IMG/VR virus record: IMGVR_UViG_2698536647_000011
Coordinates: 1-27,882 of that record
DNA: 27,882 bases
Source of the DNA: a virus
Lineage: Duplodnaviria; Heunggongvirae; Uroviricota; Caudoviricetes
Direction: 5' to 3' (one strand)
In this document: positions 3,463 to 11,151 of the stretch, piece by piece
Numbering within the stretch: the first letter of the stretch is position 1
Layout: each line of letters begins with the position of its first letter
Program-made: the position numbers and the translations under genes
The notes under the pieces: generated by a model
Told to the model about the DNA's origin: nothing
What the model saw: the letters and a program-made list of their open reading frames with translations, nothing else
Database searches by the model: none

Positions 3463-5384
3463 TATTCATCTCCAGATAATGCCCGCGCGTAATCCGCCAG
3501 GGTCTTGTTATTGTTACGGCTGCCTTCTTCCTCCAGCAGGCTGGCCAGAAGTGAATCAAGATTTAGCTGCCAGCGGGATATGCTTATACGCAGCGCCGCC
3601 AGTGCATAAACAAAGCAATCGAGCGCCTCATTTCGTCGTTTTTTGCTGTCCCATACGATCTTTTTCTTTCCGTCTACCCATTTTTCCACCTGCTCTTCAG
3701 CTGTTAGTTGTTGGGCCTCTGTTAGATCGTAGATTTCTGGGTTATTCGGGAAATGAACCGCTCCCGCCAGCGGCTCGTCTCTTTGCGCCACCAGCGTGAA
3801 ACGGTTATAAATCTGCTCTTTTGCGGTGTCTGTTCCTACCTCTGTGAGGTAAACACCATTCTTGTTACGCTTGCGTGGCATGTTCGCCACTGGCTTTCCA
3901 TAAACCGACGCCCCCTTTATAGGGATCACACGAAACAGACCGTGTTTTTTTGAGCGGTTGTAGACGATGGTGGGATCAATGCCGCCAATATCCCAGCAAG
4001 TGCGGGATATAACCATTTCGAGACCGTTCTGGCGCTTATACGTCCTGTTGATCGCTTCATCAACTCGAGCGAGAGTCGACTCATCATCATGACGACCCAT
4101 AATGATAATTTTGTCGATAAGCCAGCTTTCCTCTCCCGGCCCCCATCCCCAAACACGCATTTCGTAACGGTCAAGCTGGGAGTCAATACCCGCTGTCAGA
4201 TATGCCACTCGCTCCGGCACAGACGCTTCAAAGTGCTCTTTTCGTTCCGCTAAAACTTCAGCATCGGGTCGTTCACCTATTTTCGGTTCCCACGTTTCGC
4301 CCAGGGTCGTGTTAACGAAAGTTTTTCGCTTACCCGTATCACCTTTTGTTTTTATCCAGTCCTTGACGATCTGCACCCAGGTTGTGAACGGGCTATATGC
4401 GGTCCAGATGTGGAATGTAACGCTGTCAGGAGGTTCAATTTCGGTACCGGATGAAGAAAACCAGTTAAGGCCGTCTCGTGTCCAGATACCTGTTTCATCA
4501 CAAATATACCTGGCCTCCAGAAATTCCAGCTCCTGTTGTTTAATCACACAGGCATTGTGTTCACAGAGGTAGTAAACGCTGGCAGGTTCTCCCGGAGACC
4601 ATTTGAAGCCAAATGGTGTCTCTTTATCACCGAATTTCAGATACTGCTCTTCCCCACAGTGTGGGCATGGAACATGGAACCGAAGAAAATGTTCAGACTC
4701 CTTAGCAGCTCTTTCTATCTGGCACGTACCTTTGACTTTCGGTGTAGATCCGCGAATGGATTTCGGCCATACAGAACCCTCAATACGCTTATCACCCAGA
4801 AAGGTGGGAGAACCTTCTTTCTCGATGTCATCATCGAAAGCGGCGAGCTCGTCGTAGCCAGCCACATCAACTGATTTTTCACGGTAGTTTTTTGCAGCCT
4901 TACCGCCCAGGCACCAGAAACCACGACCATTCGAGAAACGCTTCATGCTCAGCGTATTGTCCCGGTGTTTTTTACCGTACCAGGGAGCAAGCGCCAGCAA
5001 CGTCGGAATATCACGAATGGTCGGTTCTACATGAGACTTCATGAAGTTTTCAGCATCACCGTCGGTTGGTAACCATATTAGGGAGTTACGCTGTTTATGT
5101 TGGATGAAATATGCGTAAACGCCGAGCAACATTTTTGAGTAGCCGACACGAGCCGATTTAACGACATTCACCTCGCGAATATAGTCATTACCCATCGCAT
5201 TCATAATTGCACGCTGAAATGGCAGTGTTTCCCAGCGCCCTTCCTGGTAGGCAGACTCTTTCGGGAGATAATAATTCTCATCTGCCCATTCAACTGCTGT
5301 TTGCGGTTGCGGCCGGTACAGCGAACGTAACCCCGCCCGCGCAGAGTGCTGCAGCCCCTTAACCTGACTGTTCGATATATTCAC
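3462..5384 (-). CDS. A: Terminase large subunit (lambda gpA-like)
   Basis: 640 aa, lambda gpA length and position between Nu1 and W; 5' end overlaps Nu1 3' end as in lambda. Confidence 0.95.
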
Positions 5385-5904
5385 TCAGCAACCCCGGTAT
5401 CATTTCATCCAGCGCAGCTGCCTTGTTCATGGCCTTAATGATGTCCTTCTTGAGGAAATCAATATGTCGGTTCTCCAGCTCCGGGAAGCGCCGCTGAACC
5501 GACAGAGGTATTCCATCGAGAATGCTGGCGATTTCTCCGGCTACCCGCGACAGCACGAACGTGCAGAATGCGGTCTCCACCACTTCAGCGGACTCTTTTG
5601 CATTTTTTAATTCCTGAGCGTCAGCCTGAGCTCGCGTAAGTCGGTGTCGCTCATATTCAATCGTGCCAGGTTGAAGATCGGACTCAGAAGCGATACGGAG
5701 ATCTTCAACTTCCTTCCGCAACTTTTCATTTTCTATAGCTGCATCGCGCGCACTGTACCATTCGATTGCAGCAGCAGATTCAAAGAGAACCTCATTACCT
5801 TTGCCACCACCGCGGACAACCGGCATACCTTGCTCCTGCCAGTTCTGAATCGTTCGGACGCTTACCCCGAAAATTTCGGATAAGCGTTTTTTGTTAACCT
5901 CCAT
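5359..5904 (-). CDS. Nu1: Terminase small subunit (lambda Nu1-like)
   Basis: 181 aa; MEVNKKRLSEIFGVSVRTIQNWQEQGMPVVRGGGKGNEVL... is near-identical to lambda Nu1 N-terminal winged-HTH region. Confidence 0.95.
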   Translation of the reverse strand: MEVNKKRLSEIFGVSVRTIQNWQEQGMPVVRGGGKGNEVLFESAAAIEWYSARDAAIENEKLRKEVEDLRIASESDLQPGTIEYERHRLTRAQADAQELKNAKESAEVVETAFCTFVLSRVAGEIASILDGIPLSVQRRFPELENRHIDFLKKDIIKAMNKAAALDEMIPGLLSEYIEQSG

Positions 5905-6149: not shown

Positions 6150-6878
6150 CTATCGACGGCACTGCTGCCAGATAACACCACCGGGGAAACATTCCATCAT
6201 GATGGCCGTGCGGACATAGGAAGCCAGTTCATCCATCGCTTTCTTGTCTGCTGCCATTTGCTTTGTGACATCCAGCGCCGCACATTCAGCAGCGTTTTTC
6301 AGCGCGTTTTCGATCAACGTTTCAATGTTGGTATCAACACCAGGTTTAACTTTGAACTTATCGGCACTGACGGTTACCTTGTTCTGCGCTGGCTCATCAC
6401 GCTGGATACCAAGGCTGATGTTGTAGATATTGGTCACCGGCTGAGGTGTTTCGATTGCCGCTGCGTGGATAGCACCATTTGCGATAGCGGCGTCCTTGAT
6501 GAATGACACTCCATTGCGAATAAGTTCGAAGGAGACGGTGTCACGAATGCGCTGGTCCAGCTCGTCGATTGCCTTTTGTGCAGCAGAGGTATCAATCTCA
6601 ACGCCAAGCGTCATCGAAGCGCAATATTGCTGCTCACCAAAACGCGTATTGACCAGGTGTTCAACGGCAAATTTCTGCCCTTCTGATGTCAGAAAGGTAA
6701 AGTGATTTTCTTTCTGGTATTCAGTTGCTGTGTGTCTGGTTTCAGCAAAACCAAGCTCGCGCAATTCGGCTGTGCCAGATTTAGAAGGCAGATCACCAGA
6801 CAGCAACGCGCCACGGAAAAACAGCGCATAAAGCACTTCATTAGCAGCGCCAGATAGCGTAATGATTTTGTTACTCAT
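6150..6878 (-). CDS. Hypothetical protein (242 aa) abutting cos; no family recognised
   Basis: Long ORF; internal ATG at 6878 (MSNKIITLSGAANEV...) has RBS AAGGAAA; the annotated ORF start at 6917 lacks one. Confidence 0.55.
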   Translation of the reverse strand: MSNKIITLSGAANEVLYALFFRGALLSGDLPSKSGTAELRELGFAETRHTATEYQKENHFTFLTSEGQKFAVEHLVNTRFGEQQYCASMTLGVEIDTSAAQKAIDELDQRIRDTVSFELIRNGVSFIKDAAIANGAIHAAAIETPQPVTNIYNISLGIQRDEPAQNKVTVSADKFKVKPGVDTNIETLIENALKNAAECAALDVTKQMAADKKAMDELASYVRTAIMMECFPGGVIWQQCRR

Positions 6879-7263
6879 GGAATATTTCCTTTTAGGCGTG
6901 AGCCTGTCGCACGGCAATGCCGCCCGAGAGGTAAACGCAACCTAACGGCATCACCCAGGCTCACTACTGAAAGACTCTCTTTGATGTGCGCGTGCGATGC
7001 GCGTAGAAGACTGATTTATCAACCTGTCTTTATATCAGGATTCATTACCTGACTATTTGTGGGTAAAGTTCGTAGTGCGCTGATCGTGCAAAATGATTTT
7101 AGTTGGGAACAGTTCGCAACTCTGTCCCATAAAAATCAGCATATTCCCATCTATCCCATATCCAGCGCATTGACCATCGGGATACTGAAGGGAGATTCCA
7201 TCATCTCTTAGAAAGATCACCATCTCTTTTGTTTCAATTTGCATATAGCTACCTGGAGGATTT

Positions 7264-7878
7264 ATGAATGCAAGGATTTTCATGGACTATTACCATGAGA
7301 TTGATTTTCCATCTTTATTCGCGAGAGCAGTGGAAAGCGATGACGATGTGGGTACTACATTGCGCATTCACCTACTTTGTGAGCGCATGGTCGAAGCATG
7401 GATATGCGCATGCTGTGACTGCCAAGATCTCTTTGGAAGAGATAAAAACAAACTTTTAATCGAATGTAATACTAAAATATCCATGGCGGGAAACCTGGGA
7501 ATCCCCCCGGAACTTATGAAATCACTTAAAACCATCAACTCAATGCGTAATGACCTTGCACACAATCCATCAATACAAAGCATTGCTGATTCAAGGATCC
7601 AGAGCCTGAAGGATACTCTGACTGAATACTTTAAACAGCATCCAACGGAACCCAGCATGGAAGAATCAAAACTGGGTATTTTTAACGCCGAGAATCAATT
7701 AACCGAAGAAGTTTCCTTAGATAGTGACAGTTCAAAAAACAGACTTAAGTTAATCTTGCTGTTCAGCAAGTTAATGCAGGCGTTAATGCAATTAGTTGCA
7801 GCTAATCATAATGGGCGCTGGGATAACCAATTTAGCCAATTCGTTTACCATGTGACCATGAACGCAACAAAGAGATAA
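7264..7878 (+). CDS. HEPN-motif protein (204 aa), possible abortive-infection or RNase-type accessory gene; opposite strand to phage late genes
   Basis: Contains ...LKTINSMRNDLAHNPSIQ..., an R-x4-H arrangement as in HEPN RNase motifs; AT-rich codon usage unlike flanking phage genes; RBS GGAGGA 4 nt before ATG; followed by stem-loops at 7884-7902 and 7915-7935. Confidence 0.55.
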   Translation: MNARIFMDYYHEIDFPSLFARAVESDDDVGTTLRIHLLCERMVEAWICACCDCQDLFGRDKNKLLIECNTKISMAGNLGIPPELMKSLKTINSMRNDLAHNPSIQSIADSRIQSLKDTLTEYFKQHPTEPSMEESKLGIFNAENQLTEEVSLDSDSSKNRLKLILLFSKLMQALMQLVAANHNGRWDNQFSQFVYHVTMNATKR

Positions 7879-7946
7879 ATCCAAGCCCGTTTTGTACGGG
7901 CTGTTGCATTATCACAGGCACTCAGTGAATGCCTGCTGTAATGCCG

Positions 7947-8144
7947 CTAGTCGTCGAGTTGCAACACACCGTGATCCAGTGATTCTGAATAGGCGATAAG
8001 TCCGGTATAACCGGGGATAATCTCACCATTATCAGCTTCAAATTCAGGAATTGTGCCGGTGGTGATGGTGTATTGAGGCTGGCCATCTTCCTTCGCGAAG
8101 GCTGCCAGGTCTTCAATCTGCTTAGCTGTAAGAACTACTGTCAT
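7947..8144 (-). CDS. Small strongly acidic hypothetical protein (65 aa from second ATG)
   Basis: ORF with GAGGA RBS 6 nt before ATG at 8144; about 12 Asp/Glu versus 2 Lys; downstream of a terminator, so likely own promoter. Confidence 0.4.
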   Translation of the reverse strand: MTVVLTAKQIEDLAAFAKEDGQPQYTITTGTIPEFEADNGEIIPGYTGLIAYSESLDHGVLQLDD

Positions 8145-8161
8145 GCTCATTCCTCAGTTGT

Positions 8162-8186
8162 TAAAAAGCCCCGCGAGTGCGAGGCG
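8162..8186 (-). terminator. Intrinsic terminator after lysis cassette
   Basis: On - strand GCCTCGC-ACTC-GCGGGGC hairpin (7 bp with one G-U) followed by TTTTT. Confidence 0.5.
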
Positions 8187-8357
8187 ATTTGATTGAATTC
8201 TCGGCTCTTATCTCAGCGCAGCCCCTTACTGCGTGCCGGTTGCTCGGTGATGAGCATCAGCGATGAGACATTAAAGCCGACCGAAGGCCAGCGGCGTTCC
8301 TCATGTTGCCGACAGAGCCATATCGACAAGAGGACGAAAACTAGCAGCATGAATCGC

Positions 8358-8861
8358 CTATTGGTTATTCGACAGTCGCACTGATTCGTAAATCCGCTCA
8401 CACGTCATTCCTGCCCGGTAGCTTTCGTCAGATCGTCCAGCATAATATCGAGCTGCTTCTGCAAGGCTTCCGAGCATGTCGGCAAGCATTGCTGCGTTGG
8501 CTCCGGCTGTTTTGCTTCTGACGGAAGTGGCGAGATCTGCGGTGTGCTTTGCGGCGTCCATGTGGGTAGCGAGTTTTGTTGCTTCGGCGCGCAGCTGCTT
8601 AACAGTGGTAGCCAGGCCAGCAGAAGTAACGGCAGCGCTCGCTGCTTGAGCTTGAGCATCTTTAACGGCCTCATCCCGGGCGATTGTTCGCCCTTGTTCA
8701 ATCATACGAGCTGCGGTCTGTGCATTCGCTTCCTGTGAAGATTCCGCGCTATCCCGGTCAGCCCACTTTATTTTCCAGCTGCGGTTCGTCCACTCACTGC
8801 CAGCGAGAAACGAACCTACCAACGCAACAATCACAATGATGCAGATGCCACCCGGCTTCAC
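8358..8861 (-). CDS. Rz: Rz-like i-spanin
   Basis: Position after endolysin; N-terminal TM segment (ICIIVIVALVGSFLAG) then Ala/Gln/Arg-rich coiled-coil periplasmic domain; likely GTG start at 8861 overlapping endolysin stop. Start uncertain. Confidence 0.7.
   Translation of the reverse strand: MKPGGICIIVIVALVGSFLAGSEWTNRSWKIKWADRDSAESSQEANAQTAARMIEQGRTIARDEAVKDAQAQAASAAVTSAGLATTVKQLRAEATKLATHMDAAKHTADLATSVRSKTAGANAAMLADMLGSLAEAARYYAGRSDESYRAGMTCERIYESVRLSNNQ
8405..8659 (-). CDS. Rz1: Rz1-like o-spanin lipoprotein, embedded in +1 frame inside Rz
   Basis: MLKLKQRALPLLLLAWLPLLSSC lipoprotein signal with lipobox Cys, followed by Pro-rich short mature peptide; classic embedded Rz1 architecture. 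Alternative start at 8674. Confidence 0.7.
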   Translation of the reverse strand: MLKLKQRALPLLLLAWLPLLSSCAPKQQNSLPTWTPQSTPQISPLPSEAKQPEPTQQCLPTCSEALQKQLDIMLDDLTKATGQE

Positions 8862-9406
8862 TGGTCTATCCCCCAGCACGTCAGTGCGCTTTCCTGGTCC
8901 CGCCGTTCTACCTGCCCATAACATCCATCCTTCTGGCCCTTGGTCAGGCGGCAATCGCGGCCACCGTCTTTAATCCACCAGCGGATTGCCTCGCATGCAC
9001 CGATGCGGTCACCTGCGTTGATGCGCTTATAGAAGGTCGATGGGAAACATTTTCCGGGGCCGATGTTATATGGGCAGAAAGAAGCGATACCCGCTTTCTG
9101 TGGTTCGGTCAGTGGTACTTTGATATTTCGGTCAACCCACGCCAGCGCCTTGTCGCGTTCAATGGCGTTTACCTGGGCGCATTTCTCAGCTGACAGCTTC
9201 ATGCCCTGTACTACTGGCTTGCCATCAACCATTGTTGCACCACGGCAAATGGTCCAGAGTCCGCCGCCGTCGCGATATGCTGTCAAGCTGTTACCCTCTT
9301 TCTCATCCAGAAACTGATCGAGAATCACGGGTGCGGAAGCCCCGGCAAGAATCAAACCAACGACCGCTGCGCTCAATTTATTCTTCAGCTTTAGAGACAT
9401 AGCCAT
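8858..9406 (-). CDS. R: SAR endolysin (T4-lysozyme-like GH24 with N-terminal signal-anchor-release domain), phage 21 R-type
   Basis: N-terminal weakly hydrophobic Gly/Ala-rich segment (LSAAVVGLILAGASAPVIL) followed by E-x8-D-x5-T catalytic triad (EGNSLTAYRDGGGLWT). Confidence 0.9.
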   Translation of the reverse strand: MAMSLKLKNKLSAAVVGLILAGASAPVILDQFLDEKEGNSLTAYRDGGGLWTICRGATMVDGKPVVQGMKLSAEKCAQVNAIERDKALAWVDRNIKVPLTEPQKAGIASFCPYNIGPGKCFPSTFYKRINAGDRIGACEAIRWWIKDGGRDCRLTKGQKDGCYGQVERRDQESALTCWGIDQ

Positions 9407-9656
9407 TGCGCCGATCCTCCCGTTCTTTCCAGCGGAAATACCAGTTCACTGCACAGGTGATTACCGTGCATGCGATACCGACAATAATTGCCCAGTCGCT
9501 CAGGCTTAACCCTGCAATTCTGTCGGCCAACATCCAGGACACCTCTTTTGCTGTTTTTGCTGTTTCGGCATATGCCTTCGCTGATACACCGCAGCCGGTC
9601 AGCGTGGTGCCTGTTCCATATGAAAGTCTGCTGTAAATGGTGCTCATTCTGGTCAT
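9378..9656 (-). CDS. S: Holin, S21/pinholin-like, with dual-start motif (M-T-R-M)
   Basis: C-terminal ...WAIIVGIACTVITCAVNWYFRWKEREDRRNG resembles phage 21 S (…NLYFKIREDRRKAARGE) from memory; two TM segments; overlaps endolysin start; paired with SAR endolysin. Confidence 0.8.
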   Translation of the reverse strand: MTRMSTIYSRLSYGTGTTLTGCGVSAKAYAETAKTAKEVSWMLADRIAGLSLSDWAIIVGIACTVITCAVNWYFRWKEREDRRNGYVSKAEE

Positions 9657-9885: not shown

Positions 9886-10416
9886 ATGACAAAAAGGAAG
9901 TACCGATTTTATCATGCGGACAGGGGTAACTTGCTGAGCCCTGACATGACAATAATCCCTGTAAATGGCCTCTCTTCATTTGGAAAGCATTATCTCTCCC
10001 GGATAAATAGTGGAAATATGAGCGACGTGCTAGACGAAAATGTACAAAGAGAGATGCTGTATGAAAATGTGCGGATGGAAAATTTCCCATCCCGCCCAAG
10101 CCGATTCTCGTGCCTTTTTGGTGCGAACTCCATTCCTGAAGCGGAAAGCTTCGCCAGAAAGATAATCCCGCAACCGACCACCCCAATTAATATTTATGAA
10201 GTTTTTACTGAAAATTTTGTGATTCTCGATATGAATTGGATGGATTACATAACAACAGATTTCGGTAGTAGGGTTGAATATGCCCGGCAGTACTGGTATT
10301 CATCAATTACCCAGCACGCCCCACTTACCGGCGATAGGATGATACCAACCCTGGAAGTCCTGCTGCCGCTTCCCGTGGAAGTAGGCAAGCAAGTCAGTAC
10401 TGTCGCTTTTGATTAA
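9886..10416 (+). CDS. Hypothetical protein (176 aa), AT-rich accessory gene between Q and holin, antisense to late transcription
   Basis: Clean ORF with AAGGA RBS 6 nt upstream; low GC; no recognisable catalytic motif. Confidence 0.55.
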   Translation: MTKRKYRFYHADRGNLLSPDMTIIPVNGLSSFGKHYLSRINSGNMSDVLDENVQREMLYENVRMENFPSRPSRFSCLFGANSIPEAESFARKIIPQPTTPINIYEVFTENFVILDMNWMDYITTDFGSRVEYARQYWYSSITQHAPLTGDRMIPTLEVLLPLPVEVGKQVSTVAFD

Positions 10417-10745: not shown

Positions 10746-10880
10746 TTATTTTTGCCTACTAACGACTGCATCCATCTCAAGGCGAACATCCAGCATTGAC
10801 AGACACCCCTCAATAAACCCTTCAGCAAGCAGCATTTCTATGCGTATCTGCTTTTCGCTTTTCTTCCGGTGCTTCGCCAT
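10746..10880 (-). pseudogene. Possible 3' remnant of a second Q-family antiterminator gene (44-codon ORF)
   Basis: ...KQIRIEMLLAEGFIEGCLSMLDVRLEMD... parallels the C-terminal segment of the intact Q upstream (ISTIRREVKQIINASLFCL) and what I recall of QuuD-type C-termini; no good RBS. Confidence 0.25.
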
Positions 10881-10940
10881 CTGCCGTTTTGAATACCGTA
10901 GAATATAATGCCCAACCAACAAATGATTGTCTGCGGCCGA

Positions 10941-10966
10941 AATAAAAAAGCCCGAGACAAGCGGGC
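10941..10966 (-). terminator. Intrinsic terminator (candidate late-operon terminator, second of a tandem pair)
   Basis: On - strand GCCCG-CTTGTCT-CGGGC followed by TTTTTTATTT. Confidence 0.55.
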
Positions 10967-11040
10967 AATATGGGGGTAAGGCAATGCCGGCTCGTTGGCC
11001 GAAGGGTCCCAGGCAGTGGGTTCTGTGTGCGGCGTACCGC

Positions 11041-11070
11041 AAATAAAAAAGCCCCGCACGATGGCGAGGC
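11041..11070 (-). terminator. Intrinsic terminator immediately downstream of Q (first of a tandem pair)
   Basis: On - strand GCCTCGC-CATCGT-GCGGGGC followed by TTTTTTATTT; shares the AAATAAAAAAGCCC core with the 10941 terminator. Confidence 0.55.
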
Positions 11071-11151
11071 TTGGCATTCATTCATGTCACACACAACAAC
11101 GGCAACATATACGATTTATTCTGCTCATTTGTTCATTGAAAAGCAAGCTCG

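Follow-up and report, generated by a model that had tools for sequence, protein, structure and literature searches.

A prophage tail-assembly-inhibition locus whose defence protein is related to the HEPN nuclease HepS

The two closest described relatives of the locus we investigated are Tai ("tail assembly inhibition"), first described in phage phi80 (He et al., Nat Commun 2024, PMC11364771), and HepS, a solo HEPN abortive-infection nuclease of Salmonella Gifsy-1 (Sargen et al., Nature 2026, PMC13043305; PDB 9oij and 9oik). The locus lies in a 27,882-nucleotide stretch of viral DNA (IMG/VR record IMGVR_UViG_2698536647_000011, positions 1 to 27,882), which we call the window, and encodes a protein of 204 amino acids (aa) at 7264..7878 on the + strand, antisense to the phage late operon. 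We find that this gene is an allele of taiEcA, that it stands beside its partner atiEcA, and that Tai and HepS, judged by their sequences, are homologous members of the same family, a relationship that goes beyond a shared fold. The link between Tai, HepS and HEPN is what our analysis adds, and it is apparently unreported. In the literature searched there was no paper that joins "tail assembly inhibition" with HEPN, or Tai with HepS; the text of PMC13043305 does not mention Tai, and that of PMC11364771 contains none of the words "HEPN", "nuclease" or "domain" and gives Tai neither a domain nor an enzymatic activity.

The published phenotypes were obtained with the phi80 allele. Lysogens of phi80 block the lambdoid siphoviruses HK106, HK544 and HK578 at a late step and in a taiEcA-dependent manner; protection acts at the population level at low multiplicity of infection (MOI), and cultures collapse at high MOI. 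Under Tai, phage DNA replication, lysis and capsid production are normal and the transfer of cos plasmids is unaffected, and the capsids are tailless by electron microscopy (EM). Escape mutations fall in the C-terminal region of J, the central tail fibre. TaiEcA is made constitutively: mitomycin C induction leaves the level found in uninduced lysogens roughly unchanged, and overexpression of Q lowers it; Tai proteins were also cloned and expressed alone from pBAD18. The two genes form a noncontiguous operon, with ati on the late-operon strand and tai antisense to it, and the authors' model makes the Q-dependent late operon the sole source of atiEcA transcripts, with expression deduced from the late protein Orf6. 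Lysogens of phi80 that lack ati are viable and fail only upon induction; the titres are low, and the suppressors are insertions of insertion sequences in tai. Transplantation of ati into HK106 makes this phage immune, and the homologous pair TaiSalB-AtiSalB interacts in a two-hybrid assay. The authors see in Tai a direct, non-abortive and non-enzymatic block of J, which they explicitly contrast with abortive-infection effectors (all PMC11364771). Lambda was not restricted by any Tai tested (PMC11364771), and an older finding is that phi80 lysogens plate lambda normally (PMC2885432).

HepS is constitutively expressed, tetrameric and non-toxic by itself. Its trigger is the central-straight-fibre domain of the siphovirus tail-tip protein J, including F924 of lambda J; residues 902-933 of J form a composite beta-sheet with the N- and C-termini of HepS, and the activated protein cleaves the anticodon loops of tRNA-Thr and some other tRNAs. 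RNA cleavage depends on both R100 and H105, and protection is lost with H105A. The paper lists 393 homologues of HepS. Its authors combine a physical disruption of tail assembly, in which folding of the tail tip is blocked, with the cleavage of tRNA (PMC13043305).

The Tai protein of the window is 99.5% identical to gp52/orf63 of phi80 over 204 of 204 residues, with one residue differing, and 7053-7244 (-) is 100% identical to gp51/orf64, which is AtiEcA. The gene for gp52 is annotated as "hypothetical protein" in JX871397 (44365-44979), and its coordinates are exactly those given for TaiEcA in Table S3 of PMC11364771 (Enterobacteria phage phi80, JX871397 (44,365-44,979), before terS). Identity this close to a published and experimentally characterised gene identifies 7264-7878 and 7053-7244 as the TaiEcA/AtiEcA pair, and as a gene the system is therefore already known. 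The original prediction, made from the letters of the DNA, had suggested a prophage defence gene expressed in the lysogen, and for the 99.5% identical phi80 allele this has been shown by experiment (PMC11364771). It overlooked the conserved partner gene, whose start codon lies 19 bp from that of tai, and left aside whether the protein acts alone or with a neighbour; the phi80 experiments answer this, as the neighbour, Ati, works with Tai.

The same prediction had guessed at a HEPN-type protein from the sequence SMRNDLAHNP, which is indeed present at residues 93-102 and contains the putative catalytic Rx4H motif R95-N96-D97-L98-A99-H100 (codons 7546..7563, +; the R95 codon is 7546-7548 and the H100 codon 7561-7563). 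By our own estimate about 0.7 Rx4-6H matches are expected by chance in a random protein of 204 aa. A lone match is thus not above chance, and the motif therefore had to be tested by conservation and fold. Close relatives of Tai are few, forming 19 clusters at 90% identity that all come from Enterobacteriaceae. In an alignment of these 19 sequences R95, N96, A99 and H100 are invariant, as is a motif in an N-terminal helix (E40, R41, E44, W46). An exhaustive profile search of 1.8 billion representatives retrieved 210 relatives of Tai at E < 1e-3, mostly of 170-210 aa. When 138 sequences were aligned, with a mean column identity of 14%, the positions conserved at 90% or more were H36, E40, K71, R95, N96 and H100, and the pattern R[NDHST]xxxH occurs in 160 of the 168 proteins retrieved; TaiSalA also has it, as RNARSH. 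An AlphaFold2 model built from the 19-sequence alignment reached a mean predicted local distance difference test (pLDDT) of 86.5 and a predicted template modelling score of 0.83, with residues 189-204 alone disordered. In a Foldseek comparison of this model with the PDB the top matches are four chains of 9oij/9oik, that is HepS, at probability 1.0 and template modelling scores of 0.5-0.57. The model thus depicts a single-domain, all-alpha HEPN fold whose nearest solved structure is HepS. The motif is meaningful because it is conserved among homologues and borne by a HEPN fold, and with the homology to HepS described below the HEPN guess holds up.

Ready-made profiles were of little help. Neither Pfam nor NCBIfam had a match for Tai or Ati, PADLOC returned for Tai only weak matches, to CARF-HEPN models and there to the HEPN portion (E 0.004), PHROGs places both proteins in families of unknown function, and a single-sequence phmmer search of Tai against the PDB yielded nothing useful. 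With the profile of the TaiEcA subfamily alone, HepS was found at E 7e-4 over the helix-loop-catalytic-helix region; with the profile of 138 sequences it was found at E 6e-19 (71.7 bits), aligning profile positions 12-145 with HepS residues 17-151. When compared with HepS directly by phmmer, many of the sequences that the TaiEcA profile had found gave matches, with E values as low as 2e-17. One of them, P0070, forms a bridge, matching the TaiEcA profile at 4.7e-15 and HepS at 1.2e-12. A hhalign comparison of the TaiEcA subfamily with a HepS-proximal set, which consists only of HepS and its 15 nearest representatives, gave a probability of 99.6% and E 3.1e-24 over 162 aligned columns. The HepS sequence used was residues 17-156, taken from an alignment printout, and a 48-aa fragment of HepS found no match in the phage collection or in a database of 5.8 billion proteins.

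The alignment places R95, N96 and H100 of Tai on R100, N101 and H105 of HepS with a constant offset of -5, so that the Rx4H motif of Tai faces R100-N101-x3-H105. E40 of Tai aligns with a glutamate in helix 2 of HepS, K71 with K76, and L78 with L83, a residue of the HepS interface. The conservation of K71 and L78 in Tai is at most suggestive of HepS-like tRNA cleavage or of a HepS-like tetramer. The idea that TaiSalA is HepS itself was rejected, as TaiSalA is the gene of Salmonella phage FSL SP-016.

The partner gene atiEcA (7053..7244, -) is co-oriented with the late operon and encodes a counter-defence protein of 63 aa. Its mechanical open reading frame (ORF) extends to 7283 (76 aa), and the conserved core and the RefSeq start begin at the internal methionine at 7244. 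The AlphaFold2 model of Ati is all-beta, with four strands and a pLDDT of 84; structure comparison of this model gave no informative fold match, and Pfam, NCBIfam and PADLOC found no match, neither to MNT nor to any other known antitoxin domain. The label "Fur-regulated protein", given to NCBI homologues and, as "putative", to phi80 gp51, is unsupported, as the search of 6900-8000 for a Fur box gave nothing better than chance: the best match agrees with the 19-bp consensus at 12 of 19 positions, and 200 shuffles had a mean best of 12.1, with 154 of the 200 reaching 12. The start-to-start spacer of 19 bp (7245..7263) holds the Shine-Dalgarno sequences of both divergent genes, CCTGGAGG on the + strand and CCTCCAGG on the - strand.

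We surveyed the pairing in the window and in 36 loci with homologues 48-100% identical to TaiEcA. In the window and in 35 of those loci, 36 of 37 sources in all, an Ati homologue lies immediately upstream on the opposite strand, and this divergent arrangement persists down to a Tai identity of 48%. The spacer is 19 bp in most loci and slightly longer in the most diverged ones, up to 24 bp measured. More distant homologues are paired too: at 36% identity with a 63-aa Ati-like protein and a spacer of 18 bp (locus L039), and at 27% identity with a partner of 98 aa that has the same N-terminal motif and a spacer of 22 bp (L038). From these sequences the Tai-Ati pairing is wider than the five Ati versions reported in PMC11364771. 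The pair sits between lysis genes and terminase in the window and in loci L003 and L007, among tail genes in L006, and between the tail-tip genes M and L in L039; in every case Ati is oriented along the late genes and Tai against them. A scan of the genome contigs gave one locus only. In one locus (L027, IMGVR_UViG_3300042934_001321, ~3790-4000) a frameshifted, start-less ati remnant stands beside an intact tai (63% identical, with RNDLAH), which suggests that Ati is dispensable once a prophage no longer needs lytic growth. Longer divergent upstream genes also occur, one of 111 aa at L044 (1067-1402, -) beside TaiSalA and the 98-aa gene at L038 (3682-3978, -) beside the distant Tai homologue P0035. 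The two products resemble each other weakly at the C-terminus, in the pattern W.S.S.EQK..I (BLASTP E 0.001 over 32 residues), and may represent a second, longer class of Ati that is absent from the list in the Tai paper.

We consider it very probable that the locus is a Tai-Ati cassette whose Tai protein is a HEPN of the HepS family, and our reading is that Tai would act as a J-triggered RNase that also sequesters J. At rest Tai would be an inactive HEPN oligomer. The nascent J of an invading phage would bind Tai and so be withheld from tail-tip assembly, and the same binding would switch on RNA cleavage by Tai, the substrate probably being tRNA. The gene for J would lie towards the distal end of the late operon, with heads and lysis proteins made by the time J appears, and this late position would reconcile tailless particles and lysis with a nuclease that blocks translation. 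During the prophage's own induction, Q-modified polymerase would pass the hairpins at 7884-7944, run antisense across tai and yield Ati, which would bind Tai and keep it off. The conserved C-terminus of Tai (W186, N188, Q192; pLDDT < 50 for residues 189-204) is a candidate sensor segment because it resembles the HepS termini, which fold only when the trigger binds. We also lean, with much less assurance, towards the view that Tai and HepS are one family throughout, in which Tai proteins would be tail-protein-triggered HEPN RNases that need R95 and H100, with Ati blocking the trigger site.

Several points weigh against a J-triggered RNase. In the literature searched we found no biochemical nuclease data for any Tai, and the activity is one that we infer. 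Phage DNA replication, lysis and capsids are normal, and the authors argue for a direct, non-abortive inhibition of the tail (PMC11364771). TaiEcA leaves lambda unrestricted (PMC11364771, PMC2885432), whereas HepS restricts it, and the trigger epitope or the specificity must therefore differ. Overall identity to HepS is about 15%, and the N- and C-terminal sensor segments cannot be aligned by sequence. An interaction between Tai and J could not be demonstrated biochemically because J is insoluble (PMC11364771), and for the mechanism of Ati the only evidence is the two-hybrid result with the homologous pair TaiSalB-AtiSalB (PMC11364771).

MtlR and YggD, the next-best structural matches to the Tai model after HepS, act as non-catalytic HEPN-fold regulators. 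They lend some weight to a purely stoichiometric explanation, in which Tai binds J or another tail protein, the HEPN fold serves for binding only, and the Rx4H motif plays no catalytic part. This explanation also fits the tailless capsids seen by EM, the fact that neither replication of phage DNA nor transfer of cos plasmids is affected, and the line that the authors expressly draw between Tai and abortive-infection systems (PMC11364771). However, R95, N96 and H100 are invariant in 19 of 19 close homologues and conserved at 90% or more in 138 sequences whose columns are on average about 14% identical, a pattern that is hard to explain without selection on catalysis. Moreover, HepS needs the equivalent residues R100 and H105 for RNA cleavage and loses protection with H105A (PMC13043305), and Tai depends on MOI in the same way as abortive infection does. 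We therefore regard simple binding as possible and rather doubtful.

A classical type II toxin-antitoxin system, with a HEPN toxin held by Ati and defence following upon decay of the antitoxin, is very improbable. The frameshifted ati next to an intact tai with RNDLAH (L027) and the viability of phi80 lysogens lacking ati, which fail only upon induction, argue against it. In the authors' model, which was inferred via Orf6, atiEcA is expressed only from the Q-dependent late operon, whereas Tai is constitutive, non-toxic in the lysogen and was expressed alone from pBAD18. Ati has no MNT or other known antitoxin domain, the two genes are divergent and not co-transcribed, and several members of the family (HepS, P0020, P0031) are solo. 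That Rx4H is a chance motif in an unrelated helical protein, as the empty Pfam and NCBIfam scans, the weak CARF-HEPN match in PADLOC (E 0.004) and the one match expected by chance at this protein size might suggest, is already refuted by the structural matches, the HepS profile match (E 6e-19) and the hhalign probability of 99.6%, and we give it practically no credence.

If the preferred reading of Tai as a J-triggered HEPN RNase is correct, Ati, as a small protein of beta-sheet, would occupy the site where the trigger binds, or mimic that site, and so keep the nuclease off while the prophage is in its own late phase, and it would be a second, protein-based answer to the problem of self-targeting that Gifsy-1 solved with a variant of J. 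If RNxxxH is functional, the mechanism proposed for Tai needs revision, and the literatures on Tai and on HepS describe one widespread family of prophage defences. The cassette is present at 99.4% identity in the E. coli strains DH5alpha, DH10B, NEB 5-alpha and HST04 through their phi80dlacZdeltaM15 remnant. Cloning strains with this remnant may thus be actively defended against some lambdoid siphoviruses, and, if our reading holds, the phi80 copy of Tai in DH5alpha/DH10B-type strains would also be a tail-protein-triggered HEPN RNase. For the exclusion of T4 and the interference with P1 that are old phenotypes of phi80 lysogens (PMC2885432) a HEPN nuclease is a plausible candidate, and we found no paper that names the responsible gene.

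The setting of tai agrees for the most part with the original prediction. The ORF begins with ATG and has its own ribosome-binding site, GGAGG at 7255-7259, 4 nt before the start codon. It is a moron of a lambdoid prophage and lies before terS and against the late operon, between the lysis cassette (8358-9656, -) and the gene for the small terminase subunit (5359..5904, -); the lysis genes encode an Rz-like protein (8358..8954, -), a lysozyme (8858..9406, -) and a holin (9378..9656, -), so that all neighbouring phage late genes are on the opposite strand. The G+C content is 0.39-0.43 over ~7000-7900 and thus lower than in the flanking lysis and terminase regions (0.48-0.57). The prediction of flanking hairpins stands on the downstream side, where two strong ones follow in tandem; upstream there is one weak hairpin (7035-7052, z -1.8). 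Scans of 6800-8400 found no sigma-70 promoter site and no Rfam match.

The segment 6954..7947, comprising ati, tai and the hairpins, is 99.4% identical to phi80 (query positions 55-1048 of the searched stretch 6900-8300). Since the flanks outside it are unlike those of phi80, it behaves as a low-GC mobile cassette of about 1 kb. A prophage of E. coli Nissle 1917 matches the whole of 6900-8300 at 99.9% identity, and other parts of the window match other strains; the prophage is therefore a mosaic. Just after the tai stop codon lies a GC-rich hairpin of 7 bp (7884..7902). On the - strand a T-rich run comes after it, so that it resembles a terminator of late-strand transcription without Q modification; this role is putative. 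The second hairpin, GCATTATCACAGGCACTCAGTGAATGCCTGCTGTAATGC (39 bp, 7906..7944), forms the right edge of the cassette, and the fold of the tandem has z -4.75 on the + strand and -6.44 on the - strand. Exact copies of GCATTATCACAGGCACTCAGTGAATGCCTGCTGTAATGC are found in many unrelated phages, including at least 119 IMG/VR viral contigs as well as Klebsiella, Pectobacterium ZF40 and other phage records; tai is present in 6 of the 119 contigs among the matches listed. The left flanks of these copies are unrelated, and the right flank usually starts with the reverse complement of a stop codon, which places GCATTATCACAGGCACTCAGTGAATGCCTGCTGTAATGC directly 3' of a late-strand gene. In the window the gene that ends there is an ORF of 67 aa (7947..8150). 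GCATTATCACAGGCACTCAGTGAATGCCTGCTGTAATGC may be a portable terminator, an RNA-stability element or an element of moron junctions.

Two further regions of the window deserve mention. Between ati and the terminase, 6150-6917 (-) encodes a protein of 255 aa that is N15 gp59-like according to the phi80 annotation and has a weak Pfam match to Phage_Tail_Tip (E 7e-5, residues 132-164); a tail-tip-like segment thus adjoins a defence that would sense the tail tip. Between Q and holin, and like tai antisense to the late operon, lies a DUF2441 gene (9886-10416, +), which found no match in PADLOC and is a second candidate cargo gene, as a moron or a defence. Accompanying it is the C-terminal remnant of a Q antiterminator gene (10746-11081, -). 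We considered whether a split Q means a dead late operon and rejected this; the second ORF is the known Q remnant that accompanies the DUF2441 moron, and there is thus no evidence of a broken Q. The same spot in E. coli MLI104K1 also has genes for tRNA-Thr and tRNA-Asn, and no prophage tRNA that might counter an anticodon nuclease was found in the window.

In comparison with known systems, the locus is closest to TaiEcA/AtiEcA of phi80, with which it shares gene order, divergent arrangement, the position before terS and the cassette itself (99.4% DNA identity). It differs in residing in another host prophage with unrelated flanks, in having the 67-aa gene in place of phi80 rha, and in its lysis genes. 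HepS belongs to the same family and differs from Tai in overall sequence, in restricting lambda and in its way of avoiding self-targeting: Gifsy-1 relies on a variant of J without any partner gene, and phi80 and the prophage of the window carry Ati instead. The solo state of HepS is shared by members of other branches of the family (P0020, P0031) but not by the TaiEcA subfamily, where Ati accompanies Tai in 36 of 37 sources. The HEPN-MNT toxin-antitoxin systems of type II/VII (e.g., SO_3166/SO_3165; PDB 5yep, 7ae2) align with Tai over ~130 residues, against 162 for HepS; their MNT partner lies in the same operon, whereas the partner of Tai is no nucleotidyltransferase and is divergently encoded, and Tai is not toxic without it. 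The MtlR/YggD regulators (PDB 3brj, 6kcr, 3c8g) have no detectable sequence relationship to Tai and no phage context. Finally, Tab of Pseudomonas prophages and Tha/Ith of S. aureus prophages, as cited in PMC11364771, likewise place the defence gene antisense within the late operon and make the counter-defence only in the lytic cycle, which prevents autoimmunity, although their proteins are unrelated to Tai and Ati.
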